Origin: Candidatus Fermentimicrarchaeum limneticum
GTDB taxonomy: Archaea > Micrarchaeota > Micrarchaeia > Burarchaeales > Fermentimicrarchaeaceae
Direction of reading: 5' to 3'
Assembly (NCBI GenBank): GCA_013426015.1
Contig: CP058998.1
Location: forward strand, 1,050,758-1,114,757
DNA length: 64,000 nt
Below, piece by piece: positions 1,211-30,766 of the stretch. The notes under the pieces were generated by a model. It saw nothing but the letters and a program-made list of their open reading frames with translations, was not told the origin of the DNA and ran no database searches. The position numbers were made by a program, and so were the translations under genes. How positions within the stretch are numbered: the first letter of the stretch is position 1; the number at the start of each line of letters is the position of its first letter.

Positions 1211-1249
1211 GATGTAAAGCTTTTAATTACGTAAAACCAAACCCCTTCA

Positions 1250-3442: not shown

Positions 3443-3489
3443 CCTCGCAATACAAAACTAATTTAAATACAGAATTGCATTTCTAACCC

Positions 3490-4554: not shown

Positions 4555-4566
4555 CAAGGGCGGGAT

Positions 4567-8241: not shown

Positions 8242-8245
8242 TCAT

Positions 8246-8803: not shown

Positions 8804-8839
8804 GATAAATTTTTAAGCTACGACGCCTAAACGTATAAT

Positions 8840-9421: not shown

Positions 9422-9472
9422 TTGTGGTTCTCACTTCGCTTTTAGCGAAATACAGGCATCCAGAGGCGTATC

Positions 9473-13213: not shown

Positions 13214-13235
13214 CATGGTAAGATGACGTGGGATT

Positions 13236-15172: not shown

Positions 15173-16289
15173 CGTCTCCATAGTGAAATGTCCTGATTAC
15201 TCAAAAGTGAAAGTAGCAGTAAAAAGATCATTGGACCTTTTGGGCGGAGCTAGAAAGTTTTTCAAAAAGGATGAGATGATACTGCTTAAACCCAATATAT
15301 CCGACCCTCTCCCTCCCGACAAGGCGAGCAATACCCATCCACTCCTTGTAAGGGCGGTGATTGAGGTTGCGCAGAGGGCAGGAGCCAAGGTTTGGGTAGG
15401 GGAGTGCTCTGCAGGGGGGTCCCCCGGGATAACGAAAAAATGCCTGGAGATATCGGGTATCGGAGATGTGTTGAGGGAAACAGGGGTTGAATTCAAGAAT
15501 TTCCAGGAAGAGGTCTTCGTCCCTCGCGACATACCCGGATTTAAAGTTTTGGAAAAAACGGATTTTGCCGGCTCCTTTTTCCAAGCGGACTCCATTGTGA
15601 ATTTGCCAAAGCTCAAAACGCACGGACTCACCTTCATGACTGGAGCGGTAAAAAACTGCTTCGGGTTCATAAACCCGCAGGAGAGGCAGTACCTGCACAG
15701 AAATTTCCCAGAAAGGGAGCGTTTCAGCCAAGGGCTGGTTGACGTCTACTCATTCATAAAACCAAGATTGACAATAATGGACGCCGTTGTCGGTATGGAG
15801 GGGGAGCAGGGTCCCTCGTTCGGTGACCCAAGGAGAATAGGGGCCGTCATAGCTGGCGGCGACGGAGTTGCAGTAGATGCAGTCGCAGCCGAGATAATAG
15901 GCTACAACCCGCTTGCGATACCTATGATAAGAAGCGCGGATGAACGTGGTGTTGGGAGTATCAGAGGGATACGCGTGGTTGGGAGCAGTATTGATGCGGT
16001 GAAAGTGAGAGATTTCAAAAAACACCCACTCTTCAGCAACAAATACCGGAAAATGCAGGGATTTGGAAGCTCGTTTGTCATGATGCCGGAGGTTGACACA
16101 AGCAAATGCACCAGATGCAGGACCTGTGCGGATAACTGCCCCGTAGGTGCTATATTGATGGATCCCTATCCGGTAATAAACAGAAAGAAGTGCATAATGT
16201 GTTACTGCTGTCATGAGCTATGCCCGTCCGGTGCGTGCAGGCTTGAGGTAAAATGGTTCGGAAAAAAAGATAAAAGAGGAGTGGAATGA
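15165..16289 (+). CDS. DUF362-domain protein with a C-terminal 2x[4Fe-4S] ferredoxin domain
   Basis: The C-terminus carries CTRCRTCADNCP and CIMCYCCHELCP (two CxxCxxCxxxCP motifs). The N-terminal ~300 aa show the DUF362-type fold signature (ILLKPN..., GECSAGGSPGIT). It overlaps the flanking radical-SAM genes by 8 and 4 nt. Confidence 0.55.
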   Translation: MPDVSIVKCPDYSKVKVAVKRSLDLLGGARKFFKKDEMILLKPNISDPLPPDKASNTHPLLVRAVIEVAQRAGAKVWVGECSAGGSPGITKKCLEISGIGDVLRETGVEFKNFQEEVFVPRDIPGFKVLEKTDFAGSFFQADSIVNLPKLKTHGLTFMTGAVKNCFGFINPQERQYLHRNFPERERFSQGLVDVYSFIKPRLTIMDAVVGMEGEQGPSFGDPRRIGAVIAGGDGVAVDAVAAEIIGYNPLAIPMIRSADERGVGSIRGIRVVGSSIDAVKVRDFKKHPLFSNKYRKMQGFGSSFVMMPEVDTSKCTRCRTCADNCPVGAILMDPYPVINRKKCIMCYCCHELCPSGACRLEVKWFGKKDKRGVE

Positions 16290-17182
16290 TGGTTAGCGAC
16301 ATAGCAGTCGGAGTAACATGCAATAACTGTTGCATAATGTGTACAAACATAATGCCCCCCCCAACAAGGTGGGACGCGAGCACTGAGGACATTGAAAGGA
16401 TGGTGCGCAGCTTTGATAAGAAAGAGCGCAAGATAGTGCTGACAGGCGGCGAACCCTCAATAAGAAGTGACTTCCTGCGCATACTCCGGTTCATAAAAAA
16501 GGAGAGGCCTGATTCAAGAACAATGGTTCTTACGAATGGAAGGATATTCTGTTATCCCGAATTCACCAAGAAATTCATCTCCACTGGTTGTGACTGGGTT
16601 GCAATCCCCCTGCACGCTCATAAAGCTGAGTTGCACGACATGATAACGAGGGCTCCTGGCAGCTTCGAGCAGACAGTGCAGGGGATAAGGAACCTGCTTG
16701 ATTACCAGGACGAAGTCGACCTAGACGTGAGAGTTGTAATCCACAGGTTGAACTACAAGCATTTGCCAGCCCTCGCCAAGTTCATCTCCAACGAATTCAA
16801 CGGCCTCCACCAAGTCGTGCTGTTCCCCATAGACATAATTGGGAATGCGAATATAAACAGGAAAGAGCTCCTGGTAAAAATAACTGAAGTCAAACCTTAT
16901 CTTGAAAGAGCACTCAACACGCTAGAAAAAAATGATTTTGATATCAGCCTATTCCACATCCCGTTCTGTGTTTTAGACAGAAAATACTGGAAGAATGTAG
17001 CCGGCAGGACGGTTGAGGATAGGAGGATAACCTTCGAACCATGCGGCGAGTGCATCATGCGGGAAAAATGCCCGGGAATCTGGAGGACGTATGCATTCAG
17101 AGTCGGCACTGCCGAGTTCAAACCCATCCGCCCAGCACCAAAAACAATATATACGAAGTCACCAAATCTAAATGTTAGATGA
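16286..17182 (+). CDS. Radical SAM enzyme, paralog 5
   Basis: VGVTCNNCCIMC (Cx3Cx2C), LTGGEPS and C-terminal CGECIMREKCPGIWRTY. It shares a 35-nt tract (ggcagcttcgagcagacagtgcaggggataaggaa, PGSFEQTVQGIRN) with paralogs 1 and 4. Confidence 0.65.
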   Translation: MMVSDIAVGVTCNNCCIMCTNIMPPPTRWDASTEDIERMVRSFDKKERKIVLTGGEPSIRSDFLRILRFIKKERPDSRTMVLTNGRIFCYPEFTKKFISTGCDWVAIPLHAHKAELHDMITRAPGSFEQTVQGIRNLLDYQDEVDLDVRVVIHRLNYKHLPALAKFISNEFNGLHQVVLFPIDIIGNANINRKELLVKITEVKPYLERALNTLEKNDFDISLFHIPFCVLDRKYWKNVAGRTVEDRRITFEPCGECIMREKCPGIWRTYAFRVGTAEFKPIRPAPKTIYTKSPNLNVR

Positions 17183-19308
17183 CCGTGCCGAGTGTTAAAA
17201 TATTGTCACTTTCCGTTTTTGTACTGCTTCTGTTACCCATGGCAAGGGCGCTTACAACAAATGCAACTGTAACAATAAAGAATCCTTCCGGACAGGCGGT
17301 GGTGAACAGTCAGCAGATGACCTGCACTGCGCTAGGCTCGGGAACGTTTTCCGGCTCCGCGTTTGACAGCCCTACTCTGTGCGGCTTTAACACAACTTCT
17401 GCCAATCTTATAAACCGCACCAATACGAGCTGCGCATACACATATACAAAGAATTACTCAGCAGAAGGTGCCTGGACTGCAAACGTTACATTCTACCACA
17501 CTGCATACGAGAATAGAGGAGTTAATATAGATACCACAAACGGAACTGTTGATACTCAGTCTCCACCAACGGGCCAGGCCACTTTGGACTGCACTGCAAA
17601 TACAACATGCGTGTCAGACCCACAGTGCAACAACACCCTGAACGAGTCAGTGAACATGACCATCTACGCGATAAACTGGGACACAACGCAGGCTGACTGT
17701 GTTGGTTACGGAAAGTTGTGGTATCCCGGTAAGACAAGCGGCTCAAATTACTACTGCTGCGGCGATGATGGAACCAGTGATGATTTTGCATACTGGAGCG
17801 GAACGACATGCATGTACTGCAATAATGGAGTCAACAGCAGCACAACCACAAAGTGTTCTGCCACTTCTGCGTACTGCACGGGGGGTGATAGCGCTACCTG
17901 TCAGAGTGGCGATGACAACTATTGCTGCTACAATGTTGGGTGCTCTTCAACTGGGGCGACGGGTTCTCAGACAAACATGGTTGGTGGCAATTGCACATGC
18001 ACAGATGACCTATGCTACTGGGGTTACTGTGACAATGCTTCTTGGGGTGGAGCGGGCTGCTACTACTCGGTTTCTTGTTCCTCCACTGGCTGGGTAGGCA
18101 ACCTACGCAGCCCTCCAAACGATCCTAGAAACCAGACAGTCTCACCCCAAATTGCAGAGCCTGAAACTACGCTGAATGTAACGGCGAATGTAAGCGACGA
18201 CACTCAGAATGCGCATATAATTGTCTACAATTCTTCAGTAACCACACCTGTCGGTTCCACCGCCATTTGTACTGGAAACGACGTGGGTTCGAATCAGAAT
18301 TCCTCGTGCACCTTCACGGCCTCGGCTGCAGGCTGCTCAGCTGGGAACTGTACGGTCAAAATAATAGCGAGTGAGGAGAACTCTGATGCATGCGGTCCAC
18401 CGAAGTATAGTTTCCATTTCGTTAATGTAAGCTTCACCTATAAGAACAGAAATGTCTCACCACCTACTCGCAACGCACCGGCAAGCGACCCGAATGTGCT
18501 TGTCGGCAACACCTTTGTGCTCAACTGCACTGCACTTACAGGAAATGCTTCCACTGGAATAAACATGTCCTTCCAGTTCAACTCAACAACAGCTGGTTGG
18601 GCGAATATAACCACGTCAGGTGGCTTGACCACAACTCAGACAAACCCAGCTGTGAATGTTCTGAATGGAACAGCATATGCAATCAATGTGACAGGCGTTA
18701 CACCTGGGACTTACTGGGTGCGCTGCCAGGCATTCAACTCAACCTACAGGGCAAACAGCACTGCTCAACAGGTGACAGTGACAACAATACCACCTACGAT
18801 AAATGTGAGCGCAGAGAGCTACCCGAACTGCGGTGCTGTTTTCTACAGAGTGAGCTTCTATGACGTTAATTCAAAACTCATTGACTCCTCTTTCTCCCTC
18901 AAGGTGATAGACCCAAGCGTGATAACTGTTCTGACTCAGGCTGCCCTCTACCCGAATAACGGAACGGGCGTGTACCTCGGCAGCTATCTGCTCAATACAA
19001 GCTCTCCGCTTGGAACGTGGCTGCTAAAGGTGACCGAAAGCTCTGGGGTGACCACGGGGAAGAATTTCTATGTAGTGACTACGTGTGGAGATGGAACTTG
19101 CACAGGAGGGGAGAACTGCGAGAACTGCGCAGCAGATTGTACCTGCTCAGGTTTCTGCCAGGAGGGCACCTGTTACACCTGCTCTGGCTCACACTCCGGC
19201 ACTTGTCCGAGCGAATCAAAGTGCTGCAATTGCGGTATGTGTAACCTCGGTTATTTGTGTATTCCAGAGGAAATGCAATGTGACGGTTTTACATGCGGAT
19301 GTCTCTAA
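17179..19308 (+). CDS. Secreted, extremely Cys/Thr/Ser/Gly/Asn-rich surface protein with a C-terminal Cys-knot-like module
   Basis: It has an N-terminal signal peptide (SLSVFVLLLLPMARALT). More than 60 Cys fall in CCGDDGTSDD, CMYCNNG, CTCTDDLCYWGYC and similar contexts. The C-terminal CGDGTCTGGENCENCAADCTC...CNCGMCNLGYLC module is also found in the downstream pilin. There are many N-x-S/T sequons. Confidence 0.5.
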   Translation: MTVPSVKILSLSVFVLLLLPMARALTTNATVTIKNPSGQAVVNSQQMTCTALGSGTFSGSAFDSPTLCGFNTTSANLINRTNTSCAYTYTKNYSAEGAWTANVTFYHTAYENRGVNIDTTNGTVDTQSPPTGQATLDCTANTTCVSDPQCNNTLNESVNMTIYAINWDTTQADCVGYGKLWYPGKTSGSNYYCCGDDGTSDDFAYWSGTTCMYCNNGVNSSTTTKCSATSAYCTGGDSATCQSGDDNYCCYNVGCSSTGATGSQTNMVGGNCTCTDDLCYWGYCDNASWGGAGCYYSVSCSSTGWVGNLRSPPNDPRNQTVSPQIAEPETTLNVTANVSDDTQNAHIIVYNSSVTTPVGSTAICTGNDVGSNQNSSCTFTASAAGCSAGNCTVKIIASEENSDACGPPKYSFHFVNVSFTYKNRNVSPPTRNAPASDPNVLVGNTFVLNCTALTGNASTGINMSFQFNSTTAGWANITTSGGLTTTQTNPAVNVLNGTAYAINVTGVTPGTYWVRCQAFNSTYRANSTAQQVTVTTIPPTINVSAESYPNCGAVFYRVSFYDVNSKLIDSSFSLKVIDPSVITVLTQAALYPNNGTGVYLGSYLLNTSSPLGTWLLKVTESSGVTTGKNFYVVTTCGDGTCTGGENCENCAADCTCSGFCQEGTCYTCSGSHSGTCPSESKCCNCGMCNLGYLCIPEEMQCDGFTCGCL

Positions 19309-19349
19309 TCATCATTCTGAAAGACTAGGAAAAGGAATCAAAGCCGACA

Positions 19350-19366
19350 CAACCTATATTTTAATA
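19350..19366 (+). promoter_or_regulatory. Conserved AT-rich promoter-like element upstream of the pilin gene 19388
   Basis: caacctatattttaata lies ~25 nt upstream of the ATG. A near-identical copy sits upstream of 20121. Confidence 0.35.
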
Positions 19367-19387
19367 TCCTGCCGATAAAATTGTCTT

Positions 19388-20041
19388 ATGCGCAGAGGGC
19401 AGATAAGCTTTGACTTCCTCGTCATAGTAGTTTTTGCCTTCATAATATTCCTCGAGATGTTCCAGCTGTATGCGCTCGAGAGCAGGTCAAGCAGCATAAT
19501 AGAAGGAAAGGCGAGTGCCCTGAGTGTGTGCAGCAAGGTTGCGAGAACAATAAACGAGGTTCTCAAGGCAAACGAAACCAGCGCGGTTGTGACGATACCC
19601 GAGACTTTGGACACTGGCGATACTTACTATCTCAGCATAAAAGCCGCTGGGAGGAGGGTTGATGTCTTCTGGCCGGTTTCAGCACAGAATAGAAGCGTCA
19701 CAGTGCCCATACTGACGAGTAATGTCACTGAGCGGAACATATCAAAATCTCTGGGCTCTGGCGAGACGACAATCAACATCACCAATCGAAATGGAACAGT
19801 GGGCATTTTTATCCTTGGAACATGCGACAACACTGTTTGCGAAGCTGGGGAGAACTGCGAGAACTGCGTTGCAGACTGCACCTGCTATTGTGGGGATGGA
19901 CTGTGCACCCATGCAGCAGGAGAGGACTGCAATACATGCGTGGCTGACTGCGACTGTGAGGCGCCAGCTTCAATCTGCTGTCCTGAATACACAGAGGCGC
20001 ACGGTCTTTGTGTTCTTCAGAGCCAGATGTGTAATCCATAG
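19388..20041 (+). CDS. Type IV pilin-like protein (class III signal peptide) with a C-terminal Cys-rich module
   Basis: The N-terminus is MRRG|QISFDFLVIVVFAFIIFL. The C-terminal CEAGENCENCVADCTCYCGDGLCTHAAGEDCNTCVADCDCE shares a 22-nt identical tract (ggggagaactgcgagaactgcg) with 17179..19308. Confidence 0.55.
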   Translation: MRRGQISFDFLVIVVFAFIIFLEMFQLYALESRSSSIIEGKASALSVCSKVARTINEVLKANETSAVVTIPETLDTGDTYYLSIKAAGRRVDVFWPVSAQNRSVTVPILTSNVTERNISKSLGSGETTINITNRNGTVGIFILGTCDNTVCEAGENCENCVADCTCYCGDGLCTHAAGEDCNTCVADCDCEAPASICCPEYTEAHGLCVLQSQMCNP

Positions 20042-20079
20042 CTACTCTCTGGATAGGTAAAAAGAGGTCTATTAACGGT

Positions 20080-20097
20080 CAACCTATATTTTTAATA
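20080..20097 (+). promoter_or_regulatory. Conserved AT-rich promoter-like element upstream of the pilin gene 20121
   Basis: caacctatatttttaata lies ~25 nt upstream of the ATG and is near-identical to 19350..19366. Confidence 0.35.
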
Positions 20098-20120
20098 CCA
20101 ATATGCTGAAATAGTAACAG

Positions 20121-22160
20121 ATGAGAAAAGGCCAGCTGTTCAGCCAAGACATAATATTCGCGATAGTCCTGGTATTGTTCACGTTCTCGCTATGGCTTAT
20201 ACTGAGGGACAGGGTGCTGCACGTAATATCCATAACTGAGGACAGGAGGGAGATTGACGAAGCAGCATCAGAAGCCATCGGCCAGCTTCTTGAAACCTCT
20301 GGAAGGCCGACAAACTGGAATAGGCTCTCGGCAATAGACGAAAATACAGTGGAAAGCGTAGGTCTTGCAAGTGAAAGAAACGTTCTGGACAGCGACAAGG
20401 TTGACAAATTCGTAGGCCTAGCGAAAAATCAGATAAGCAGTTTTGTTCTTCTTGCAGCCCTGTGGCATTTCGACGAGGGAATCGACACCACTGCCGCAGA
20501 CAGCTCCGGAAACGGGAATACTGCCGTGTTCAACGGCACTTCACTAACCACATTGGTTCCAAACAGCGTAAACAAGGCGTATTATGCTTCCTCCGCAGTA
20601 TCGGATTCACCAAGCCAGGCAACAACGGAATTCTGGTCGGGAAAATACACCAATGTCCAAAGCTCGGATGCCGCCTATGCATTTGATAGTGCATCCGTTT
20701 CGCAATATGAAGACTGCAAGACACCGTCGCTATCCGGCTCCTGCGCATGCGCAAACGCAGGGATATGCGAGGAGGACACTGTAGAAGGCTGCACCACTGG
20801 CACCATAACGTGCACCTCCACCGGATGCAACCAGAGAGGGAATGCAACGAACTCCAGCAATACTTGCACTGCTTATCCATCTGAGAGCGGATGCAGGGAC
20901 CCTGATCCATGGGACTGCCCTGAGAGCGGAGTAATATGCACTAGTGGAGCCTGCACACCATCCTGCCAGAATCTAGGTTCCTGTTACTATACATGCAACG
21001 CCGGCTACTACAACTGCAATAACGACATAACGACTGACGGCTGCGAAAGCAACTCAGCCTGCTATAATTTCGCCATTCAGAGATACACCTTCAACCTCAG
21101 CTCCTATACTTGGAGTGAGGTGGGCAGCCTGCAATTCTGTTTTGAGGGTTACAACTCGTCCACCGGCGGATTGGCAACAGCAGAACTGATGTGGTATAAC
21201 GTCTCCGGAAGCTCCTGGGTCAGCTCCACCCAAATTTCATCAACAGAGGGCACATGGTGCCTCTCATTCAGCGGTGATAATCTAACTTCGCTTTACAATG
21301 AAACCGGAACATGGGTCCAGTTCGCCGTAAGGGGCAACCAGTCGAAGACAGGGCATGCATTAACACTGGCCGTGGACTATGTATACCTAAACATGACCCG
21401 ATCCCACGCAGTTGAATCGTTATGGACAACGGGAAAATCCGGCAACGGGATCTTTCTTGATGGCGCCGCCCATATGGATGTGGCCGATTCCTCCACCTTG
21501 GACATAACGAACCAGCTTACTATCGAGGCCTGGGTGAAGTCGAGTACTCTCTCCCCGTCCTACCAGACAGTACTCCAGAAAGGCGATTCTTCCAATGAGA
21601 ACTACGGATTGTATCTGAAAGGGAGCGAGGTTTACTTCGAGTGGCTAAACAGCGGGCTCAAATCGAACGAAACAGCGTCAGCAAACCTTCAGGCAAACCG
21701 CTGGCAGCACGTGGCTCTGGTTTTCAATTACTCGGGAGGTTGGGGCAAGCTTTACGTAGACGGCTATGAGAAAAAGAACTTTTCAGTGTCCGCTGACCTG
21801 CTTGCAAACAACGGCAAGCTCCTGATTGGACAAAACAGCTCCGCAGGCAATTATTTCAACGGAACGCTGGACGAGGTTGCAATCTACTCTAGGGCAAAGT
21901 CGGCGGATGAGATAAGGGACGACGCAGGCGCCGGATACACTACAGTAAAGAGGCTTCTGGGTCTGGAGAGGGAAGGATACACCTTCAATTTCACAATCGC
22001 AGATATGGGCGGGAATGTGCTTTACAGCGTCAATGCCTCCCCGCAGGCTGCTCCAAGCGGCGCAGGCTTCGCCGCGGTTAACACCACTGCCTTTATTGAA
22101 AGATTTGCATTATTGAATGACTCCTTGGTCAGGGTCACACTGGGTGTATGGATTGAATAG
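20121..22160 (+). CDS. Large pilin-like adhesin (class III signal peptide) with a LamG/concanavalin-like lectin domain
   Basis: The N-terminus is MRKG|QLFSQDIIFAIVLVLF. LamG_3-type motifs are present: WHFDEGIDTTAADSSGNGN...WQHVALVFNYSGGWGKLYVDGY...NGTLDEVAIYSRAKSADEIRDD. It also has a central Cys-rich segment. Confidence 0.6.
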   Translation: MRKGQLFSQDIIFAIVLVLFTFSLWLILRDRVLHVISITEDRREIDEAASEAIGQLLETSGRPTNWNRLSAIDENTVESVGLASERNVLDSDKVDKFVGLAKNQISSFVLLAALWHFDEGIDTTAADSSGNGNTAVFNGTSLTTLVPNSVNKAYYASSAVSDSPSQATTEFWSGKYTNVQSSDAAYAFDSASVSQYEDCKTPSLSGSCACANAGICEEDTVEGCTTGTITCTSTGCNQRGNATNSSNTCTAYPSESGCRDPDPWDCPESGVICTSGACTPSCQNLGSCYYTCNAGYYNCNNDITTDGCESNSACYNFAIQRYTFNLSSYTWSEVGSLQFCFEGYNSSTGGLATAELMWYNVSGSSWVSSTQISSTEGTWCLSFSGDNLTSLYNETGTWVQFAVRGNQSKTGHALTLAVDYVYLNMTRSHAVESLWTTGKSGNGIFLDGAAHMDVADSSTLDITNQLTIEAWVKSSTLSPSYQTVLQKGDSSNENYGLYLKGSEVYFEWLNSGLKSNETASANLQANRWQHVALVFNYSGGWGKLYVDGYEKKNFSVSADLLANNGKLLIGQNSSAGNYFNGTLDEVAIYSRAKSADEIRDDAGAGYTTVKRLLGLEREGYTFNFTIADMGGNVLYSVNASPQAAPSGAGFAAVNTTAFIERFALLNDSLVRVTLGVWIE

Positions 22161-22569
22161 GGCATTCATCTTCACATTGGATGCGATTCTCGCGGTGATA
22201 CTGTGCTCCATGCTCTTCTTCTCAACCTACTACCTTCTGGCGAAATTCCAATATTCTGTAGTGAGGGAAACCGCCCTCGTCAACATCTGCTCGGATGTCC
22301 TGACCTCGCTGGAGAAGAACCACACGCTGCAGAATTCCATAACCTACTCCCGCACGTCGGACATACGCAACGTCCTGAACAACCTACCTTCAAACACATG
22401 CTCGGATCTCGTGATATACTCCTATGACAACAAACCGCTGCTCATAACCGCAAAGACGGGCTGCAACTGCACGGCAAGCCGCTCGTTGGTAGTTAGGAGC
22501 TTCGTTATTCCTGAGAGCAATGGAACGCTTTCAACATATATGGCTAAGATGGAGGCGTGCTACACATGA
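22117..22569 (+). CDS. Small type IV pilin-like protein (class III signal peptide)
   Basis: ...GLNRA|FIFTLDAILAVILCSMLFF has the archaeal prepilin pattern. It overlaps the previous gene by 44 nt. It is 150 aa. Confidence 0.4.
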   Translation: MTPWSGSHWVYGLNRAFIFTLDAILAVILCSMLFFSTYYLLAKFQYSVVRETALVNICSDVLTSLEKNHTLQNSITYSRTSDIRNVLNNLPSNTCSDLVIYSYDNKPLLITAKTGCNCTASRSLVVRSFVIPESNGTLSTYMAKMEACYT

Positions 22570-25500
22570 GGAGGGCATTCCTTTTCTCAGTGATATTTGT
22601 GCTGCTTTTCACAGTCTTCCTGCTGCTCTCAGCTTTCTACCTAAAAATCCTGCAGAGCAGCGAGATAGATATCGCGCAGGCAGGCAACATAACCAAGGTC
22701 GTTTACACTAGAGACGACATAGCAACTGACCTCTTGGACTACCTGCAACTTGCCGTGAATATTGAGAGCAACTCCACCAATACCATCCTGAACATATCTG
22801 ATGTGCTCACATCCCCGTATAGCAATCCAAACTCATCGCTTGATTCCTACAAGAGCATCATAAACGGCACTTATTCAAACCAGACCAATCTCCTTGACCC
22901 AAGCACAAACCTCTCCGTCATCTCGCTGGACACCACCTCATTCGAGTCCTCGCCGTCACTCAGCTTCCTCAACTCCAACTCCTCGCTCAACCTCCGCTAT
23001 TCTTACAACAATCTCAGCAAGAACGAGCTGATAATAAACGGCTCGAGCCTTACGAGAAACTACTCGGTGACAGCAAGACTGAACAACACATGCATGAACA
23101 ATAACTGCACCAACGCCACATTCGCCGGAGGACCGCCGACCGTTGACAACTCAACGCGCGGCATGTGGCATTTTGACGAGGGCACTGGCACAACAACTGC
23201 TGACAGCTCAGGAAAAGGAGGTACCGGAACTATAAACGGAACTACAAACTGGATTGGAAGTAGATTCGGAAATGCTTTGAACTTCAGCACAGACTACACT
23301 GACTTTGTTAGCATTCCAGATTCAAATGATTTGGATTTAAACGCAAGTTTCACAATTGAATTTTGGTTTAGATTCCGTTACATTGGTGGAATTTATAGAC
23401 CAATACTTGGCAAGGCGACTGGAAGCATGGCAGTAAGTCAAAATTATGTAGCATTTTTGAATATCGTACCACAACTCGTATTTTTGATAGCGAATGGAGC
23501 AAGTGCTCAAACTATAAACTCAAGCGTATTATCAGCGAATACATGGTACCACGGAGCATTTACTGCTGATGGCAGCACAATAAAAATATACCTTAATGGC
23601 GTTCTGCAAGATTCTGCAACGCAGACTCTAACGCCATTGGTTAACAATCAACCCTTATATATAGGAACCGCAAACTATTCTCCAAGTGGATTCAAAGGGG
23701 CCATAGACGAGGTTGCAATCTACTCCCGTGCAAAGTCCGCGGATGAGATATACGCCGATGCAAATCTATTCCACTGGGACTGGGGCCCGATTGCAATAAA
23801 CAGCAATATCTCCGCAGCATGGCATTTCGATGAGGGAAGTGGAAACATCTCTTACGACAGCTCCGGAAATGGAAACAGCTGCAGCTTCAACGGCACAACA
23901 GCACCACAACTCCTCCCAGACAGCACCCATAAGGCATATCTTATCTCCTCTACAACAACCGACTCCCCCAACCAGGCAACAACGGAATTCAGCTCTGCCC
24001 AGTATAACACAATAAACACTTCTGACGATCTTTATACAACCTCAACCGCACAGGAAAGCATAACACAAAGCTGCAATTCGCCGACATTAGGTGGTTGCGA
24101 GGGCAACCCTCCTTCATATGACTGCGATATAGATGATTGCTCACCAGTTACCTGTACGTCCCCCGCCTCATGGTGCAATAATCTAGCCAATTCAGTTTGG
24201 ACTAGCACCTGTGCAAAAACAACTGCATCGTGTGTATGTAGATACAATAAAATAGGTTTCTTTTACTGCCTGCCAGGTGGCTGTAGTAAAACTGGCTTAT
24301 GCAGCTATACATGCAACTCTGGCTATTACGATTCAAACGGGCTGGACTCGGATGGCTGTGAGACCACTACGCCTGCTTATATCCACACATTCCAGAGATA
24401 CACCTTCAACCTCTCCGCCTACAACTGGAATGACGTAACCGAACTGAAATTCTGCTGGGAGGGAAAATACAATGTATCTGGAACTGGCGGAAGCCCACTC
24501 AATTCCTCGGAACTATACTGGTATAATGTAAGTTCTGCAACTTGGACTACATGGCAAACATTACCTTACAATTCAGAGAACACCTATTGTGTGAATTTCA
24601 GCAATGTAAACCTCACCGATGTTTATAATTCAACAGGCACATGGGTCCAGTTCGCCGTAAGGGGCAACCAGTCGAAGACAGGGCATACCTTAACAATATA
24701 CGCGGATTACGCTTACCTCAACGTGACACACACCCTTGTCTCATCTTGGACTGCTGGAAAATTCAACTGGGGGCTGGGTTTGGATGGGGTTGCGACGTAT
24801 GCTGAGGCAGAGGACTCCTCAAGCTTGGATATAACAACCCAGCTAACAATTGAGGCATGGATTAAACCCTATCCCACTTATGATCCATCTTGCTCAGGTA
24901 TCTGCCAGCTGCCGATAGTGGTAAAGGGGTCGAATGCTCCGCTTTATAACTATTATTTTTCGGTCTACAACACTTCTGGACCTCTTTATCTGTCTTTTAC
25001 TTATACTAATTCTGAGGGGAGTGCGTTTGCATTTCGAAGTTCTGATGGGTCGATACAAACAGGGGTTTGGCAGCATGTAGCGGTAGTTTTTGATTACTCA
25101 GTGAAGTCTCTAACCTTTTATATCAATGGAGTTGCAGCGCCAGGTGATTCCAGCTCCACTACCTTTGATCTTGGCGTAAATAACCTTCCGGTGACCATAG
25201 GAGGGAACAATGATGGCACACCCAGCTTCAACGGAACGCTGGACGAGGTTGCAATCTACTCCCGCGCAAAATCAGCGGATGAGATATACGCGGACGCAAA
25301 CCCCGTTTACATATCGCTTGATGTGAGAGATGCGCTGAACAGCTCAGTAACCGTAAGAGGCGCAAGTGCTGGGTACGTTAATCCTGGCGGAAACAACACC
25401 TTCTACCTTAAGACGAACAACAACGGGATGCTTAACATGACTGCAGGCGGCTACTCGGGGCTGTATTCGCTCAGGATGCATGCAAACAACACAAGGGCGA

Positions 25501-25613
25501 GCCTGCTCATCAAAACAGTGCAAGAAGGCGTCTCAAGCATCCAGGCAGTTCTGCCAGTCCAGCTGCGACTATACCAGCAGACATTCAGCAATCTGATAAT
25601 AGCTGAAAAATAG
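22557..25613 (+). CDS. Very large pilin-like adhesin (class III signal peptide) with three LamG-like domains; paralog of 20121..22160
   Basis: The N-terminus is MLHMRRA|FLFSVIFVLLFTVFLLL. There are three LDEVAIYSRAKSADEIYADAN LamG_3 terminal motifs and repeated WHFDEG...DSSG(K/N)G starts. It shares 48-nt and ~29-nt identical tracts with 20121..22160. Confidence 0.6.
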   Translation: MLHMRRAFLFSVIFVLLFTVFLLLSAFYLKILQSSEIDIAQAGNITKVVYTRDDIATDLLDYLQLAVNIESNSTNTILNISDVLTSPYSNPNSSLDSYKSIINGTYSNQTNLLDPSTNLSVISLDTTSFESSPSLSFLNSNSSLNLRYSYNNLSKNELIINGSSLTRNYSVTARLNNTCMNNNCTNATFAGGPPTVDNSTRGMWHFDEGTGTTTADSSGKGGTGTINGTTNWIGSRFGNALNFSTDYTDFVSIPDSNDLDLNASFTIEFWFRFRYIGGIYRPILGKATGSMAVSQNYVAFLNIVPQLVFLIANGASAQTINSSVLSANTWYHGAFTADGSTIKIYLNGVLQDSATQTLTPLVNNQPLYIGTANYSPSGFKGAIDEVAIYSRAKSADEIYADANLFHWDWGPIAINSNISAAWHFDEGSGNISYDSSGNGNSCSFNGTTAPQLLPDSTHKAYLISSTTTDSPNQATTEFSSAQYNTINTSDDLYTTSTAQESITQSCNSPTLGGCEGNPPSYDCDIDDCSPVTCTSPASWCNNLANSVWTSTCAKTTASCVCRYNKIGFFYCLPGGCSKTGLCSYTCNSGYYDSNGLDSDGCETTTPAYIHTFQRYTFNLSAYNWNDVTELKFCWEGKYNVSGTGGSPLNSSELYWYNVSSATWTTWQTLPYNSENTYCVNFSNVNLTDVYNSTGTWVQFAVRGNQSKTGHTLTIYADYAYLNVTHTLVSSWTAGKFNWGLGLDGVATYAEAEDSSSLDITTQLTIEAWIKPYPTYDPSCSGICQLPIVVKGSNAPLYNYYFSVYNTSGPLYLSFTYTNSEGSAFAFRSSDGSIQTGVWQHVAVVFDYSVKSLTFYINGVAAPGDSSSTTFDLGVNNLPVTIGGNNDGTPSFNGTLDEVAIYSRAKSADEIYADANPVYISLDVRDALNSSVTVRGASAGYVNPGGNNTFYLKTNNNGMLNMTAGGYSGLYSLRMHANNTRASLLIKTVQEGVSSIQAVLPVQLRLYQQTFSNLIIAEK

Positions 25614-26618
25614 CTATACCACGGAGAGCAGGGATTTAAGGATGTAGCCGTGTATCACCATGAACACAGCAAGCGATATCACAATTAGATAAAGGCTGTA
25701 CTTCAGTCCATTGAGCTCATTCCCATCATGTATCACGCCAATCAGCATGCTTACCGTGAAGGAGGTCACGATTATTGTGATAATGGATATATCGAAAAGG
25801 AAGTCGGAGGATATTGGGGTTCCCATGAAAAGCCCCACCTCTGAAGTGAGTGACGTGCTTGCGCCCTTTGCTTGAAGCGAGCCTATCAAGTCGACAAACT
25901 CAATTGATATGGAAAGAAGAGCGGGCATCCCGATAAGGACCGCGAAGAGTATGAATACGATATACATGTTCGTCCCTGCGATGAGCTGCCTTCTCAGTTC
26001 CTGGCTCTCCAGTATGTCGTCAGCTGCGTTCTCAAGCAGGACTGCCAGGCTTCCGCCGGAACGCATGCTGACTATGAACAGCGCAACAGTCCTTTCGAGA
26101 ACTTCGGACTTTATCCTCTTTGACATTTCCTTCAATGCGTCAGTAAATGATTCTATGCCAAGCGATTTTGCCGTGACGAACCTTACCTCCTCCTCAAGGG
26201 GACCGAACTCCGGCCTGGCAGAAATCCTCAGAGCCGCAAGGGGCGTAAGGCCTGCCCTTATGTTTGCCGCAATTAGCTGGAGTGCGTCAGGCAGTACATT
26301 TTCAATCCTCTTCCTCCTGTCCTCGACTCTGAAGTGAAGCACAAGGTACAGGGTGAACAGGGTGAACAGGAAAACGCCTATTCCTACAAGCAGCAGGACG
26401 GCAACTGCCATTATCTCCAAGACGATCCAGATGAAGAGCAGTGTTGCCACCCCAAACAGCAGCGACAGCAGCAGGACGGAACCGAACCATACTCTGGCAT
26501 CCATCCTCACGCCGGAGTAATCAAGCATCTCCTCTATGTGCCTGGTGATACCTTTAGGAGTGAGATTTCCGAACGCATAATACAATTTTCTCAAATCCTT
26601 CATATCCATAACAATCAT
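25614..26618 (-). CDS. Type II/IV secretion system F-domain membrane protein (FlaJ/TadC-like pilus platform protein)
   Basis: It carries RIENVLPDALQLIAANIRAGLTPLAAL, the T2SSF cytoplasmic helical motif, flanked by TM segments. Confidence 0.55.
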   Translation of the reverse strand: MIVMDMKDLRKLYYAFGNLTPKGITRHIEEMLDYSGVRMDARVWFGSVLLLSLLFGVATLLFIWIVLEIMAVAVLLLVGIGVFLFTLFTLYLVLHFRVEDRRKRIENVLPDALQLIAANIRAGLTPLAALRISARPEFGPLEEEVRFVTAKSLGIESFTDALKEMSKRIKSEVLERTVALFIVSMRSGGSLAVLLENAADDILESQELRRQLIAGTNMYIVFILFAVLIGMPALLSISIEFVDLIGSLQAKGASTSLTSEVGLFMGTPISSDFLFDISIITIIVTSFTVSMLIGVIHDGNELNGLKYSLYLIVISLAVFMVIHGYILKSLLSVV

Positions 26619-26635
26619 CTATCCTTACTGCCGAA

Positions 26636-26680
26636 GTTTATTACTGGAAAGTTACCCCCCTTCAGGAGGTTTATATACCC
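26636..26680 (-). repeat. Solo copy, in inverted orientation, of the tnpB 5'-flank element (ACTGGAAAGTTACCCCCC ... GTTTATATAC)
   Basis: Its reverse complement reads tataaacctcctgaaggggggtaactttccagtaataaac, matching the element 5' of both tnpB genes. It lies between the two T2SSF genes. Confidence 0.5.
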
Positions 26681-26842
26681 TGAGCTGGATATGCTTATAA
26701 GCTGTTGGAGCGGATGCAAATCCAGATTTCCAACAACCGAGTCCCAGTAAACGGACTCCTGCGTTCCGATGAAACTGGTTGCAACAATGCTGTGCATCTC
26801 AATCAACCTCTTGAAGGAATGCCCACTTCATAGGTGGGTAGT

Positions 26843-27700
26843 TTACGTGTGCGCCACAGGCCTCCTGGACTTTATGAATTCTATAAGCGCGACCTGGCAG
26901 AAGATGCAGAAGCCCACCAGACCAATGATGAAACCTTCATTCACGGATATCCCCCCAAATGTCGACAGCACCACCAGTAACGTTATACCTAAGCTTGGGA
27001 CGGCAACAGAGATTATAATGAAGAGCAGCACCCACAGGTTAAGCTCGTAGGTGTATGACTTTATCTGGGAGTACTGGTACTGCTGCAAATTCTTTATGAC
27101 GCTCTTAAGGGCAGCCTGCAGGCTTGCTCCTGACCTGAAGGCAGTGAGCATCTGCCGTATCGTCCTTCTCAGGAACTCGGATTCCGTTCTTAGCGCCATC
27201 TTCTCCAATGCAATTTCTTGCATTTCCCCTGCGTTTATATCCTGTACTGTCCGGCGGAACTCCTTTGAGATTGTGCCATAGCCTGCCTTTGATATGTTCA
27301 CCATTGCATCGAATAGAGGAACTCCGGAGCTTATCTGCAGCAGCAAATCCTTCAGGGCGTATACCAGATCCCTGTCCACATCCTCCACTATCTTCCTTGC
27401 AAGGACGCGCGGGTAGTACATGAAGAAGGATAGGAATACGAAGAAAACCAGCAATGCCGAGAAAAACAGCCACTTGATCTCGGTTATAAAATCACGCATC
27501 TTTCCCAGGGATGAGAATGCGGTGCTGATCTGCTCGGAGGTTATGTTCCCCCTCGCATAGCTGAGGATGAAGAGCAGGACGAATATTGCAAGAGCCCAGA
27601 AAACCGCATTTAAAATCGAGACTGATATGTACTCTCCCTTGTCAACATCGCTCCCAACCATCTTCAAGTCGTATTCCAGACCAGGGACGACATAGCTCAT
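26843..27700 (-). CDS. Second T2SSF-family membrane protein (TadB/FlaJ-like)
   Basis: It has three or more TM segments and a cytoplasmic helical domain (LKDLLLQISSGVPLFDAMVNISKAG). It is paired with the preceding T2SSF protein and FlaI-like ATPase on the same strand. Confidence 0.5.
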   Translation of the reverse strand: MSYVVPGLEYDLKMVGSDVDKGEYISVSILNAVFWALAIFVLLFILSYARGNITSEQISTAFSSLGKMRDFITEIKWLFFSALLVFFVFLSFFMYYPRVLARKIVEDVDRDLVYALKDLLLQISSGVPLFDAMVNISKAGYGTISKEFRRTVQDINAGEMQEIALEKMALRTESEFLRRTIRQMLTAFRSGASLQAALKSVIKNLQQYQYSQIKSYTYELNLWVLLFIIISVAVPSLGITLLVVLSTFGGISVNEGFIIGLVGFCIFCQVALIEFIKSRRPVAHT

Positions 27701-27788
27701 CTTGTTGCCTACCCCAGTAAAAGCTCTCCCAAAGCCTTTGGCAATCCTTTTCGGAATTATGAAGAAGAGAATCCTTATGCGAACACCC

Positions 27789-29552
27789 TCACAAAACTTT
27801 GTCTAAGGGAAGATTCTTCTCAGCAGCGCTCAGCACAACTTCTGGAGTTTTGTAATAAATCCCGACAACTCCTCCGACATCATCAACGCTCCTTATACCG
27901 TTCTTGCTCATCCAATCCAGAATCTTCATCTTATCACTAATATCCTTCGTTATCTCATCCTGGTTCATGCCGGTGTGCAGGTTCAAATCCTCAAGAACCC
28001 TCGTGCTCTCGTTCACCTTCTCGAATACGTCTGTCCTGGCCTTCCATTTGAACAAGGGATTGATGCTGACCGCCTCGACCGGCGATACCACCAGCTCGCT
28101 AATCTCATAAACCCTCCTTATCTCCTTCCTCCTGTCCCTGTATTGAACAACTATGAGCTGCAGCGTCTCCAGCTCGGTCATGGGCAGCTCTATTGGAGGA
28201 TGAGTCAGCCTCCTCAGCACCTGGGAAGCAGTATCTGCATGCATTGTTGAACAAACGGCATGGCCAGTGTGCATTGCCTCAAACAGGACTTCAGCCTCCC
28301 TTCTCCTCCTTATCTCTCCAACAACTATCCTGTCAGGTCTCATTCTCAGCGAAGCAAGCATGAGGTCAAGCATCCTGACAGCACCCTTCCCCTCTGGGTT
28401 TGCATTCCTCGTGGTCAGAGGCACCCAGTTCCATCTAAGATACTTGGGAAGGGACAGCTCTCTCGTATCCTCAATTGTAATCGTCCTGTTACTTGGCGGT
28501 ATAAGCGCGCACAGCGTGTTCAGGGTGCTCGTCTTACCGGAAGCAGTTCCACCAACTATGAGCGTGTTTATCTCGTACTGCATGCACAGCCACAGGAAGG
28601 CAGCCATCTCATTGGAAAGGGTGTTCATCTTCTGGCCAACAAAGTCAACAAGCGTCCAGGGGTTTCTTGAGAATCTCCTTATGGTTATCGTATTGCCGGA
28701 GCTTGAGACCGGAAATAAGGTTGCGTTTGCCCTGTCGCCCGTAGGCAGGTGCGCATCCAGTATGGGGGCGAGCAGACTTATCTCCCTCCCAGCCTTTCTC
28801 CCGATCTGTGCGGCATAGTTGTATATCTCCTCCTCGCTCTCCAATCTTAGGTTGGTCTTCATCCAGCCGAACTTCCTGTGATAAACAGATATGGGCTCTG
28901 AGGAGCCGTTGACTGCAACCTCCTCAAGCCAGTCGTCAGCCATGAGCATCTCAATGTCGCCAAGCCCGTACATCCTGTGCAGAAGAATTCCCGCAAGCAC
29001 CCTCCTCTTTCCCTCCTCAAGGGATGGTAGCTCCTCTGAAAGTTTGCTGAAAGCCGCGTTGTAGAACTTGTCCCTCACATCGGCAAACTTCCTCACGTCG
29101 CTTATCTCCTCGCTCTGAACGGTTATGACTCTCGCAAGCTCATCCCTCAGGTAATCCATGAAAACCTTGGTATACGGGCCGAGCTTCGGGGGGGATATCA
29201 AGTAGAGAGGCCTGCTCTCGCCCTTGATATCCATGATGTGGATGTTTGATGGAACGTAGTTAACCTCAATCTTGTAGCTTTCAACCACTTTTCCGGTTGC
29301 AGGTGCCTTGCTCTCATCAACAAGCTTGTTCTTCAGCTTCAGCTGCACTTTCTGCAGGATGTTTACAGGGTACATCACCTCAAGGATTCCCATGTCCTGC
29401 ATTATCTTGCCCAGTCGCTCGAGGCGGTTATGGTCAATGCCGAACCTGCTTGCAACTGCAGGCAGCTCTGCAGCCTGGTCCTTCTCAGAAGCCAGCGCCT
29501 CGCATATCTCGTCAAGTTTTGTCAAAATTACCTCAGAAGTTACTTCTGCCAT
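27789..29552 (-). CDS. FlaI/ArlI / VirB11 / PilB-family type IV pilus/secretion ATPase
   Basis: It has Walker A GGTASGKTSTLNTL and Asp/His boxes (ITIEDTRELSL, RPDRIVVGEIR). It is 587 aa with a long N-terminal domain. The annotated start may be an over-extension because a tnpB element ends 50 nt upstream. Confidence 0.7.
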   Translation of the reverse strand: MAEVTSEVILTKLDEICEALASEKDQAAELPAVASRFGIDHNRLERLGKIMQDMGILEVMYPVNILQKVQLKLKNKLVDESKAPATGKVVESYKIEVNYVPSNIHIMDIKGESRPLYLISPPKLGPYTKVFMDYLRDELARVITVQSEEISDVRKFADVRDKFYNAAFSKLSEELPSLEEGKRRVLAGILLHRMYGLGDIEMLMADDWLEEVAVNGSSEPISVYHRKFGWMKTNLRLESEEEIYNYAAQIGRKAGREISLLAPILDAHLPTGDRANATLFPVSSSGNTITIRRFSRNPWTLVDFVGQKMNTLSNEMAAFLWLCMQYEINTLIVGGTASGKTSTLNTLCALIPPSNRTITIEDTRELSLPKYLRWNWVPLTTRNANPEGKGAVRMLDLMLASLRMRPDRIVVGEIRRRREAEVLFEAMHTGHAVCSTMHADTASQVLRRLTHPPIELPMTELETLQLIVVQYRDRRKEIRRVYEISELVVSPVEAVSINPLFKWKARTDVFEKVNESTRVLEDLNLHTGMNQDEITKDISDKMKILDWMSKNGIRSVDDVGGVVGIYYKTPEVVLSAAEKNLPLDKVL

Positions 29553-29602: not shown

Positions 29603-30766
29603 TTACTGTTTGTATAGTGACATGCTCCCACCTTGAAAGACGTGGGCTTCTTCTTTCATAGATGTTGCTACTGCAACATTTCCAGAAGCGTTACTTCCCC
29701 CTTGCCCAGGGGTAGCTCTTATGAGTATGTTAAGTGCGGAGTTCAAATCCCTATCTGTTGATAATCCACAATTGGGACAGTCGTATACCCTATTCCATAG
29801 AGTCAAACCATCTCTCATATTTCCGCACCTGCTGCACATCTTTGAAGTATCTCTCGGGTCTACAAACACCACTCTGCATCCAGCTCCTTCCGCCTTGTAT
29901 GCAAGCATGTTTGCAAACATATTCCACCCCGCATCGTTTATTTGCTTTCCGTAATTCTCTTCTGACATTTCTTTCGTGGCAAGCTCCTCCAGTGCAATGA
30001 TGGAATAATCATTTACCACTTGAGTTGAAATCTTGTGCAGGAAGTCTCTCCTGCAATCTGAAATTTTTTCATGCAGTTTAGCAACTCTTACCTTTGCTCT
30101 CTTCCTGCTGGTGCTGCCTTTCTTCTTCCTTGAGAACTTTCTTTGTATAAAGGCAAGTCTGTCTTCGTATTTCTTGAAATGTCTTGGGTTGTTTATTCTC
30201 ATACCGTTTGACAAGGTTGCAAATGTTTTTAGCCCCAAGTCAATTCCAACTGCCTCCCCCTTATTTTCTATTGGAATCTCTTCAGGTGTCTCAACACAGA
30301 AAATGGCAAACCACCTCCCAGATGATTCCCTTTTCAGAGTCAGGGTCTTGATTCTTCCAGTTATTTCTCTGTGCTTCTTTATTGCAATCTCACCAAAGGG
30401 AGTGATTTTGAGTTTCTTATCCAACCAAAACCCACATTCATATTGGGGGTAATGCAGACTCTTCATCCTGTCAAGAGACTTGAAACGCGGGAAGCCGCCT
30501 TTCTCTCCTTTTTTCTTCATCTCTATCTTCCTATGAAGGGCATCAACCAATCTATCAACAAGTTCTTGCCCTACCTGTGAAAACAAGCCGCTATCTTTAA
30601 CCAACTCTCTTAATGTTCTCTTTGTTGGGAATTTTCTATAGTTGTTATAAATCTCCTTTGTAAAAGAAAGCATTTCATTCCAGAGTTCCTTGGATACCCA
30701 CAAGTGCTTTTGCATTTCCTTTTCCTGTTTTTTGGAAGGGTAGATTCTGAATTTATAAGCTCTCAT
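29603..30766 (-). CDS. tnpB: IS200/IS605-family TnpB (OrfB, RNA-guided RuvC-like nuclease)
   Basis: It is 387 aa with the RuvC-I motif VGIDLGLKTFATLSNG and a C-terminal zinc finger CSRCGN...DCPNCG (...DTSKMCSRCG). The N-terminus MRAYKFRIYPSKKQ is typical of TnpB. Confidence 0.8.
   Translation of the reverse strand: MRAYKFRIYPSKKQEKEMQKHLWVSKELWNEMLSFTKEIYNNYRKFPTKRTLRELVKDSGLFSQVGQELVDRLVDALHRKIEMKKKGEKGGFPRFKSLDRMKSLHYPQYECGFWLDKKLKITPFGEIAIKKHREITGRIKTLTLKRESSGRWFAIFCVETPEEIPIENKGEAVGIDLGLKTFATLSNGMRINNPRHFKKYEDRLAFIQRKFSRKKKGSTSRKRAKVRVAKLHEKISDCRRDFLHKISTQVVNDYSIIALEELATKEMSEENYGKQINDAGWNMFANMLAYKAEGAGCRVVFVDPRDTSKMCSRCGNMRDGLTLWNRVYDCPNCGLSTDRDLNSALNILIRATPGQGGSNASGNVAVATSMKEEAHVFQGGSMSLYKQ

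Follow-up and report, generated by a model that had tools for sequence, protein, structure and literature searches.

Background

Among the modular pilins of bacteria, those bearing the lectin-like domain Laminin_G_3 (PF13385, LamG) belong to the most frequent architectures (PMC8179133); the survey that recorded them relied on an N-terminal signature from bacteria and is silent on archaea. For Mia14 ('Ca. Mancarchaeum acidiphilum', Micrarchaeota; Golyshina et al.), the searched parts of the description note a LamG-like expansion, 'some linked to type IV pili loci' (PMC5498576), and LamG proteins are proposed as adhesins in other DPANN archaea, with arCOG07813 in Undinarchaeota, in the searched parts of a further report (PMC7414124); LamG goes unmentioned in Makarova et al. 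2016. Here we describe a group of four pilin-like genes in Candidatus Fermentimicrarchaeum limneticum, a DPANN archaeon of the Micrarchaeota, found in a stretch of 64,000 nucleotides of contig CP058998.1 (the window in what follows). Two of the four, open reading frames (ORFs) A and B, encode large proteins with LamG domains. The explanation that we think accounts best for the data as a whole, and that we hold to be fairly probable, is that the region is a type IV pilus-like locus in which ORF A and ORF B are pilus subunits with lectin cassettes that are varied by recombination.

Like the bacterial modular pilins, e.g. PilC of Streptococcus sanguinis (PMC8179133, PMC9934059), both proteins combine a class III-type N-terminus with a concanavalin-like LamG_3 module, have small partner pilins in the pilus operon and may be tip-exposed, glycan-binding adhesins, as proposed for their bacterial counterparts. 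They differ in being archaeal, in lacking an N-methylation motif of the IPR012902 type and in their association with FlaI/TadBC-like machinery. Moreover, modular pilins sensu Raynaud et al. 2021 (PMC8179133) have a short loop and a C-terminal module, whereas the module of ORF A lies inside the core, from residue ~108 to ~606; a second, unrecognised domain is nested inside LamG here, and the two lectin-bearing paralogues appear to exchange cassettes. With the LamG proteins of Mia14 and other DPANN archaea they share the phylum-level group, the expansion of LamG jelly rolls, some of them beside pilus loci, and a proposed role in host interaction; pilin-like subunits, insertion architecture, the nested domain, gene fission and cassette exchange are not described in the searched parts of PMC5498576 and PMC7414124. 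Nor were this insertion topology, the nested domain, a fission of the gene or a documented cassette exchange and conversion found in the searchable literature.

Pilin-like genes beside pilus assembly genes

The pilin-like genes and the assembly genes of the window are as follows (a slash marks the putative cleavage site):

19388..20041, + strand: pilin-like gene 1 (217 aa, MRRG/QISFDFL, Cys-rich C-terminus), heading the four-gene group
20121..22160, + strand: ORF A (679 aa, MRKG/QLFSQD), a pilin-like core with an inserted lectin cassette
22153..22569, + strand: small pilin-like gene (138 aa from the likely start TTG 22153, MNRA/FIFTLDAIL)
22566..25613, + strand: ORF B (1015 aa from the likely start ATG 22566; the ORF 22557..25613 has 1018 aa; MRRA/FLFSVIF)
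25614..26618, - strand: T2SSF (TadC/FlaJ-like) platform protein (Pfam T2SSF, E = 1e-15), convergent with ORF B, whose stop codon it adjoins
26843..27700, - strand: second T2SSF platform protein (Pfam T2SSF, E = 1e-13)
27789..29552, - strand: FlaI/TadA-like secretion ATPase (Pfam T2SSE, E = 2e-34)
4567..5655, + strand: candidate prepilin peptidase (Pfam Peptidase_A24, 27.7 bits vs a cutoff of 26.5)

An earlier note on this DNA, made from the sequence alone, had reported ORFs of 679 and 1018 aa with archaeal prepilin signals and a small pilin nested at their junction. The ORFs exist (20121..22160 and 22557..25613), and a small pilin-like gene lies between them, its 5' end overlapping the stop codon of ORF A and its 3' end the start of ORF B. 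The class III-type N-termini are also borne out: [KR][AG] followed by ~20 hydrophobic residues was found in 50 of 50 distinct homologues (17/17 for ORF A, 19/19 for the small pilin and 14/14 for ORF B), and the leader motif [KR][AG]/Q of ORF A is kept in all 17 distinct sequences. In the homologues of these three proteins the -1 position alternates between G and A only, an alternation that the prepilin-peptidase site of class III signal peptides tolerates. Residues 3-58 of ORF A are predicted as a helix by AlphaFold2 (AF2), with a predicted local distance difference test score (pLDDT) of ~80 for residues 11-30. N-glycosylation sequons occur at 2.2-4.8 per 100 aa in these proteins and at 0-1.1 in those of the window with a cytoplasmic or membrane location, a density that fits an extracellular location. 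Assembly ATPase (T2SSE), platform proteins (T2SSF, two copies) and prepilin peptidase (Peptidase_A24) are all co-encoded, with synteny kept in relatives. Judged by N-terminus and context, ORF A and ORF B are pilin-like.

Close relatives of ORF B in a collection of species-representative genomes all came from metagenome-assembled genomes (MAGs) of Candidatus Micrarchaeota/Micrarchaeia (L001-L007). All relatives considered here are MAGs or metagenome contigs, and L080/L085, L082/L087 and L005/L094 are duplicates from the same population. Their common gene order is a Cys-rich secreted protein, pilin-like gene 1, ORF A, small pilin, ORF B, the convergent T2SSF gene, the second T2SSF gene and the ATPase, the position of pilin-like gene 1 being syntenic in every related locus. 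In the product of this first gene and its homologues the Q is invariant and position +5 is acidic (QISFDFL). The searched collections did not include the window itself; the best protein identity to ORF A in them was 45% for the cassette and 70% for the core.

Several results weigh against calling these proteins pilins. None of the four matches a Pfam pilin family (E <= 0.1) or an NCBIfam one (E <= 0.01), and a profile search of the PDB with the ORF A core and the small pilin gave nothing significant (no match for A4, and only matches with E of at least 0.9 for A5). Beyond the helix, the core of ORF A is modelled with pLDDT < 50 (residues 52-149 and 604-679), so that a globular pilin fold is only putative, and the operon has no obvious major pilin. 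In the homologues of pilin-like gene 1 the -1 residue varies among G, V, I and M, with V, I or M in half of them, which is atypical for A24 substrates. Because of this variation its cleavage is uncertain, and it may undergo other processing or none.

The missing family matches in Pfam and NCBIfam, the low confidence of the core model and the lack of a strict G/A at -1 in pilin-like gene 1 would also suit ordinary adhesins, anchored in the membrane by an N-terminal signal sequence that stays uncleaved, the pilus genes being merely adjacent and [KR][AG] coincidental. We consider this quite improbable: the motif is invariant, with only G or A at -1, in the 50 distinct sequences, the small pilin-like gene overlaps the neighbouring stop and start codons, all relatives keep the ATPase and platform genes in synteny, and an A24 peptidase is present in the window.

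The main alternative to a pilus is a bindosome-like system, in which ORF A and ORF B would be surface-anchored binding proteins that use the class III signal and pilus machinery for display only, as the sugar-binding proteins of Sulfolobus do (BasEF). It would account for sizes of 679 and 1015 aa, which are very bulky for fibre subunits, for the match of the ATPase to the BasE model (E = 2e-48) and for an operon without a clear major pilin, and DPANN cells rely on scavenging. Nevertheless, we regard it as unlikely. The nearest NCBIfam model of the ATPase is FlaI, which scores far above BasE (286 vs 165 bits) while staying below its own cutoff of 550; ORF scans of the window showed no adjacent genes for an ABC sugar transporter; LamG is no solute-binding fold of transporters; two small pilin-like genes alternate with the large ones; and lectin-bearing modular pilins of bacteria do enter pili (PMC9934059). 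An archaellum was rejected as the identity of the system, with this FlaI score, a platform split over two T2SSF genes and no archaellin family match.

LamG domains and a domain nested within them

The Laminin_G_3 profile of Pfam (cutoff 27.6) matches ORF A with 104.8 bits (E = 6e-30, residues 448-598) and ORF B with 183.6 bits (E = 3e-54) over two stretches. BLASTP aligns residues 111-609 of ORF A with residues 418-921 of ORF B (44% identity), and within this unit the opening motif WHFDEG..DSSGNGN is parted from the LamG body by a ~300-aa domain that is not LamG; in ORF A orthologues with an uninterrupted LamG the motif is joined straight to the body. Each aligned unit therefore holds one LamG, split by the nested domain, so that ORF A has one LamG and ORF B two. 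Each protein carries one nested domain and ORF B adds one plain LamG, in the order N-terminal domain, LamG 1, linker, LamG 2 with the nested domain, C-terminal domain. The single LamG that the earlier note gave to ORF A stands; its three for ORF B, read as an internal triplication, come down to two by Pfam and BLASTP, one of them split by the nested non-LamG domain. The domains are placed as follows:

20460..20519, + strand: first strand region of the ORF A LamG (WHFDEG..DSSGNGN), from homologue and BLASTP alignment
20523..21416, + strand: nested domain of ORF A (aa 135-432)
21420..21926, + strand: LamG body of ORF A (Laminin_G_3; Pfam, AF2 and Foldseek)
23163..23762, + strand: LamG 1 of ORF B, uninterrupted (Pfam, BLASTP)
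~23817..23876, + strand: first strand of LamG 2 of ORF B
23880..24743, + strand: nested domain in LamG 2 of ORF B (BLASTP, homologue search, AF2)
24738..25298, + strand: body of LamG 2 of ORF B (Pfam)

The concanavalin-like fold expected by the earlier note was recovered by the profile search and by structure prediction. In the full-length AF2 model of ORF A (mean pLDDT 65) the β jelly roll of LamG, residues 435-600, has a pLDDT of 80-95 and the C-terminal half of the nested domain one of 82-92. Foldseek matches this model with probability 1.00 to the Hc domains of TeNT/BoNT, pentraxin PTX3, domain 4 of AbnA and CBM40. The TafC family of fimbrial proteins (NCBIfam NF052521) was rejected as an assignment: the likeness is confined to the LamG region (40.5 and 63.6 bits vs a cutoff of 410; E = 2e-10 and 2e-17; model positions ~150-358 of 373).

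The nested domain of ORF A is built, from its N-terminus, of a KAY..ATTEF segment, a Cys-rich stretch and a β-sandwich (FQRYTFNLS...VQFAVRGNQSKTGH...DYVYLN). Modelled alone it reaches a pLDDT of 72 and a predicted template modelling score (pTM) of 0.65, and Foldseek gives weak matches to carbohydrate-binding modules (CBMs) and a phage baseplate protein in the PDB (best E = 5e-5), and phage tail, tail-fibre and minor-tail proteins in BFVD. We tentatively describe it, from these models, as a CBM-like β-sandwich with a Cys-rich excursion. No Pfam family was matched by the domain in ORF A, ORF B or the distant carriers searched. It is rare, with 38 cluster representatives among 1.84 billion proteins, and a second homologue search with the domain yielded only four more proteins. 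Other surface proteins (P0014-P0018) carry it too, following a Sec-type signal peptide.

The insertion site of ORF A and the forms of ORF B

The earlier note had described a pilin-fold N-terminus fused to lectin-like domains; in ORF A the module sits instead inside a core of ~180 aa, of which the first ~108 and the last ~74 residues are conserved (50-70% identity in the orthologue alignment):

20121..20444, + strand: N-terminal part of the core (aa 1-108; leader MRKG/Q, hydrophobic helix and conserved region)
21936..22157, + strand: C-terminal part of the core (aa 606-679), ending in ...RFALLNDSLVRVTLGVWIE

Core-only orthologues join these two parts directly, which places the insertion point at aa ~108. 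Three states of this site were found:

Empty: L001, L003, L005, L006, L080/L085, L082/L087, L083, L086 and L091-L094
Plain LamG: L002, L007, L081, P0004 and P0006
LamG with nested domain: the window and P0048/L084

P0048 comes from another sample, and the architecture of ORF A in the window is therefore no assembly chimera. A large domain inserted in a pilin core is also a feature of the minor pseudopilin GspK (as described in PMC8179133), which, as we propose for ORF A, belongs to a four-protein minor-pilin set thought to cap a fibre; here the insert is a lectin-type β jelly roll and not an α-domain, there is no sequence relationship, and the core fold is putative.

ORF B occurs in three forms, with two plain LamGs (708-729 aa), with two LamGs and the nested domain (1008-1018 aa), or split in two ORFs. 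The split lies within the Cys-rich part of the nested domain (L001 10001..13062, L002 11282..14362, L004 137..2837, L086 6405..9516 and L089 610..3619); the first ORF runs from the pilin-like N-terminus through LamG 1 to the first strand of LamG 2, and the second starts with a Sec-type signal peptide followed by the remainder. The arrangement suggests that a secreted lectin half re-docks on the pilin half. We also observed, on a metagenome contig of 2505 nt (P0011), a 426-aa protein made of the ORF A N-terminus, a LamG and the ORF B C-terminal domain; its junction at the motif IDE(V/I)AIYSRAK fits unequal crossover between LamG 3' ends, though the contig may instead have been assembled as a chimera.

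Signs of cassette exchange among genes and strains

In a neighbour-joining tree (167 columns), 35 LamG bodies fell into two main classes, and the position of a gene does not predict the type of its LamG. The plain LamGs of ORF A group with the first LamG of ORF B (B1-type), those of ORF A in the window and in P0048 with the second (B2-type), and in L080 the LamG at the first position belongs to the B2-type class. The LamG of ORF A in the window is nearer to that of P0048 and to the B2-type domains of other genomes than to those of its own ORF B.

A further result came from the comparison of the window with its nearest relative, L080, over the span 13243..28225. Identity is 94% in 19353-19879, 22062-23212 and 25226-28225, 83% in 20079-20413 and 72% across the upstream radical-SAM and Cys-rich genes, and of the cassette DNA one part (20413-22062) is missing from L080 and another (23212-25226) replaced. 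On the left the breakpoint comes 30-45 nt past WHFDEG, and on the right exactly at the first codon of FNGTLDEVAIYS (FNGT). In L082, 94% identity to the window was limited to the 3' end of ORF B and the T2SSF genes. These patterns of identity suggest a recent exchange of pilus-locus segments between diverged lineages.

Two points weigh against this reading of the cassettes. Bootstrap support for the main classes of the tree is moderate (58-76%), and the cassettes of ORF A and ORF B share only ~45% protein identity, with no close donor in the data, so that the transfer of the whole cassette is old or came from an unsampled lineage. That this genome recently copied the whole cassette of ORF B into ORF A was rejected, the LamG bodies being only 45% identical, the ORF A domain lying closer to those of other genomes and no close DNA donor having been found.

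Short identical tracts between the paralogues

At a smaller scale, the two cassettes share identical tracts:

21309..21356 = 24639..24686, + strand: exact repeat of 48 nt, encoding TWVQFAVRGNQSKTGH
21855..21889 = 25227..25261, + strand: exact repeat of 35 nt, encoding FNGTLDEVAIYS

The earlier note had given the first tract correctly and recognised the second, whose length is 35 nt and not ~29; its third copy is a 20-nt core at 23706..23725. Overall, the cassettes have 54% nucleotide identity and use the same codon for 55% of their identical amino acids. A run of 16 identical codons is improbable on this background (permutation p = 4e-4 with the amino-acid pattern held fixed; P ~2e-7 from local codon usage). 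L083 encodes the peptide TWVQFAVRGNQSKTGH with 12 differing codons, and L084 has a near-identical peptide, with one substitution, that differs at 4 codons. Since relatives encode the peptide differently, nucleotide-level constraint fails to explain the 48-nt identity and was ruled out as its cause.

A 60-nt motif at the 3' boundary is 88% identical within genomes and 79% identical between genomes at the same position, a difference that none of 20000 label permutations reached. All copies within a genome have in common one of the variants SADEI, SAEEI or SAAEI, which differ between genomes, and the Leu of FNGTLDEV is confined to the two window copies with the 35-nt tract.

Identical tracts might also result from purifying selection on the peptide combined with codon bias, or from an artefact of repetitive metagenomic assembly. 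Both tracts do encode the most conserved peptides of their domains, the core GTTGCAATCTACTC is alike at the DNA level in many genomes, and the window is probably a metagenome assembly. We consider this explanation very improbable in view of the differing codons (12 and 4) used for the 16-residue peptide in L083 and L084, the two probabilities given above, the genome-specific variants present in all copies of one genome and the independent occurrence of an ORF A with LamG and nested domain in P0048/L084, from another sample. Moreover, repeats of 35-48 nt are shorter than the k-mers typically used last in assembly.

Diversification of the lectin modules by a diversity-generating retroelement (DGR), with the repeats as template and variable regions, is effectively refuted. 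DGRs occur in DPANN archaea and target ligand-binding domains, but usually of the C-type lectin or Ig fold and not LamG; the mismatches between the repeat copies show no adenine bias, and no reverse transcriptase was found among the scanned ORFs of the window.

Taken together, the discordant tree, the mosaic of L080, the homogeneity of the 3' motif, the 48-nt tract and the shared Leu indicate two processes, namely cassette replacement between genes and strains, and short-tract conversion between the paralogues in this genome. Recombination is well supported by sequence comparison, and the variation proposed by the earlier note, now backed by cassette polymorphism, the mosaic, the tree and the codon evidence, stands on firmer ground than a reading of one sequence could give it.

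The situation resembles that of pilE/pilS of Neisseria and the mosaic receptor-binding proteins of phages, with short identical tracts in diverged paralogues, conserved boundaries around variable ligand-facing segments and a mosaic population structure. It differs from pilE/pilS in that no silent, promoterless cassette array was found here and both partners are complete genes in one operon; furthermore, the exchanged units are whole domains and micro-tracts, and there is no evident programmed mechanism.

Proposed model

In the model that we favour, ORF A and ORF B would be two of four co-oriented class III-type proteins that are cleaved by the A24 peptidase of the locus and assembled by the adjacent FlaI-like ATPase with the two T2SSF proteins. 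By analogy with the four-pilin tip complexes of bacteria (S. sanguinis PilA-PilC, PMC9934059), the four could form a minor-pilin set that primes or caps the fibre, making ORF A and ORF B minor, probably tip-located subunits. The LamG jelly roll and the nested CBM-like β-sandwich would bind surface glycans of a host cell or substrate. Cassettes would be replaced, and partly homogenised, via homologous recombination anchored on the LamG boundaries (WHFDEG..DSSGNGN at the 5' side and FNGTxDEVAIYSRAKSADEI at the 3' side), the 48-nt and 35-nt tracts being short gene-conversion footprints between two paralogous cassettes. Such turnover would alter binding specificity, and the resulting variation may be of adaptive value.

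A more far-reaching version, which we put forward as a speculation with rather less chance of being correct, is a pilus tip complex of Micrarchaeota with recombination-driven lectin cassettes. Whole units, either a LamG or a LamG with the nested domain, would move into, out of and between two pilin-like scaffolds, and also from strain to strain, at the boundary motifs, micro-conversion would keep these boundaries homologous, and in the split ORF B the Sec-secreted half would re-dock and complete a LamG whose first strand stays on the pilin, with variation in host range as the outcome.

Other features of the window

Upstream of two of the pilin-like genes, direct reading of the sequence showed A/T-rich elements:

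20080..20098, + strand: A/T-rich promoter-like element CAACCTATATTTTTAATAC, ~25 nt 5' of the ORF A start codon

A near-identical element lies at 19350..19367, ~25 nt 5' of the start of pilin-like gene 1, with the shared form CAACCTATATTTT(T)AATA. The two copies differ by a 1-nt indel, and a fixed-length pattern search missed the second. They are probably duplicated archaeal promoters of the TATA/BRE (TFB recognition element) type that give short-leader or leaderless transcripts. A scan for sigma-70 promoters and terminators was uninformative, the organism being an archaeon.

Two further genes for large proteins with canonical class III-type N-termini, and genes for KaiC-like proteins, are found near the A24 peptidase:

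1250..3442: class III-type gene (730 aa, MRKAQAAIEL), near the KaiC-like genes and the A24 peptidase
3490..4554: class III-type gene (354 aa, MRRKGQGATEL), near the KaiC-like genes and the A24 peptidase

A KaiC-like ATPase is encoded in the window upstream of the pilin-like genes. In L002, L006 and L007 the pair of class III-type genes is located directly 5' of the Cys-rich protein and the pilin operon, and the region 1250..5655 of the window and the pilin genes therefore appear to form one super-locus.

Directly 5' of the pilin-like genes lies a system resembling the His-Xaa-Ser (Hxs) class of ribosomally synthesised and post-translationally modified peptides (6404..17182). It comprises HxsB (6404..7837; 378 bits vs a cutoff of 370), an ORF at 7810..8241 that ends in ...HSSHSSHSSHASHTSHASHTSHSVHSS (HxsA3 model, 29 bits, below cutoff) and, following these, five paralogous radical SAM genes of the HxsC/HxsC4-like kind together with a DUF362/ferredoxin gene. 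L001, L080/L085 and L081 have the block in synteny with their pilin operon; L002, L006 and L007 lack it. At 17179..19308 follows a secreted protein of 709 aa that contains 49 Cys and 34 N-glycosylation sequons. Its modules are found again, in shuffled arrangement, in the nested-domain carriers P0014 and P0015, and its C-terminus has the motif C..GENCxNCxxDC in common with that of pilin-like gene 1 (19844..19965).

TnpB genes of the IS200/IS605 type were found in or beside the pilus locus. Those of the window lie at 29603..30766 and 42369..43415, one of them between the ATPase and the next conserved surface-protein gene, and in L006 a TnpB-like gene (14310..15512), whose N-terminal sequence equals that of a window copy, interrupts the ATPase region. 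In L088 an unannotated ORF of 418 aa (680..1936) separates ORF B from the small pilin gene. Otherwise the window is ordinary chromosome, with for instance TruD, ThiC, an OB-fold protein and a RadA-like protein.

Implications

DPANN archaea such as the Micrarchaeota live attached to host cells, most of them without a genetic system, and to our knowledge the way in which they recognise and hold their hosts is largely unknown. A lectin-bearing, pilus-associated pair of proteins whose modules differ between near-identical strains is a concrete candidate for host recognition, and it leads to the prediction that cassette type correlates with host. The locus would extend the idea of the modular pilin to archaea with a different topology, the module being within the core; with the domain nested in LamG it defines a β-sandwich that is rare and unannotated, and it offers a natural example of domain nesting and gene fission in a surface adhesin. 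If the tip-complex version is true, it would represent an archaeal variation of host range analogous to the antigenic variation of bacterial pilins and to the shuffling of receptor-binding proteins in phages.

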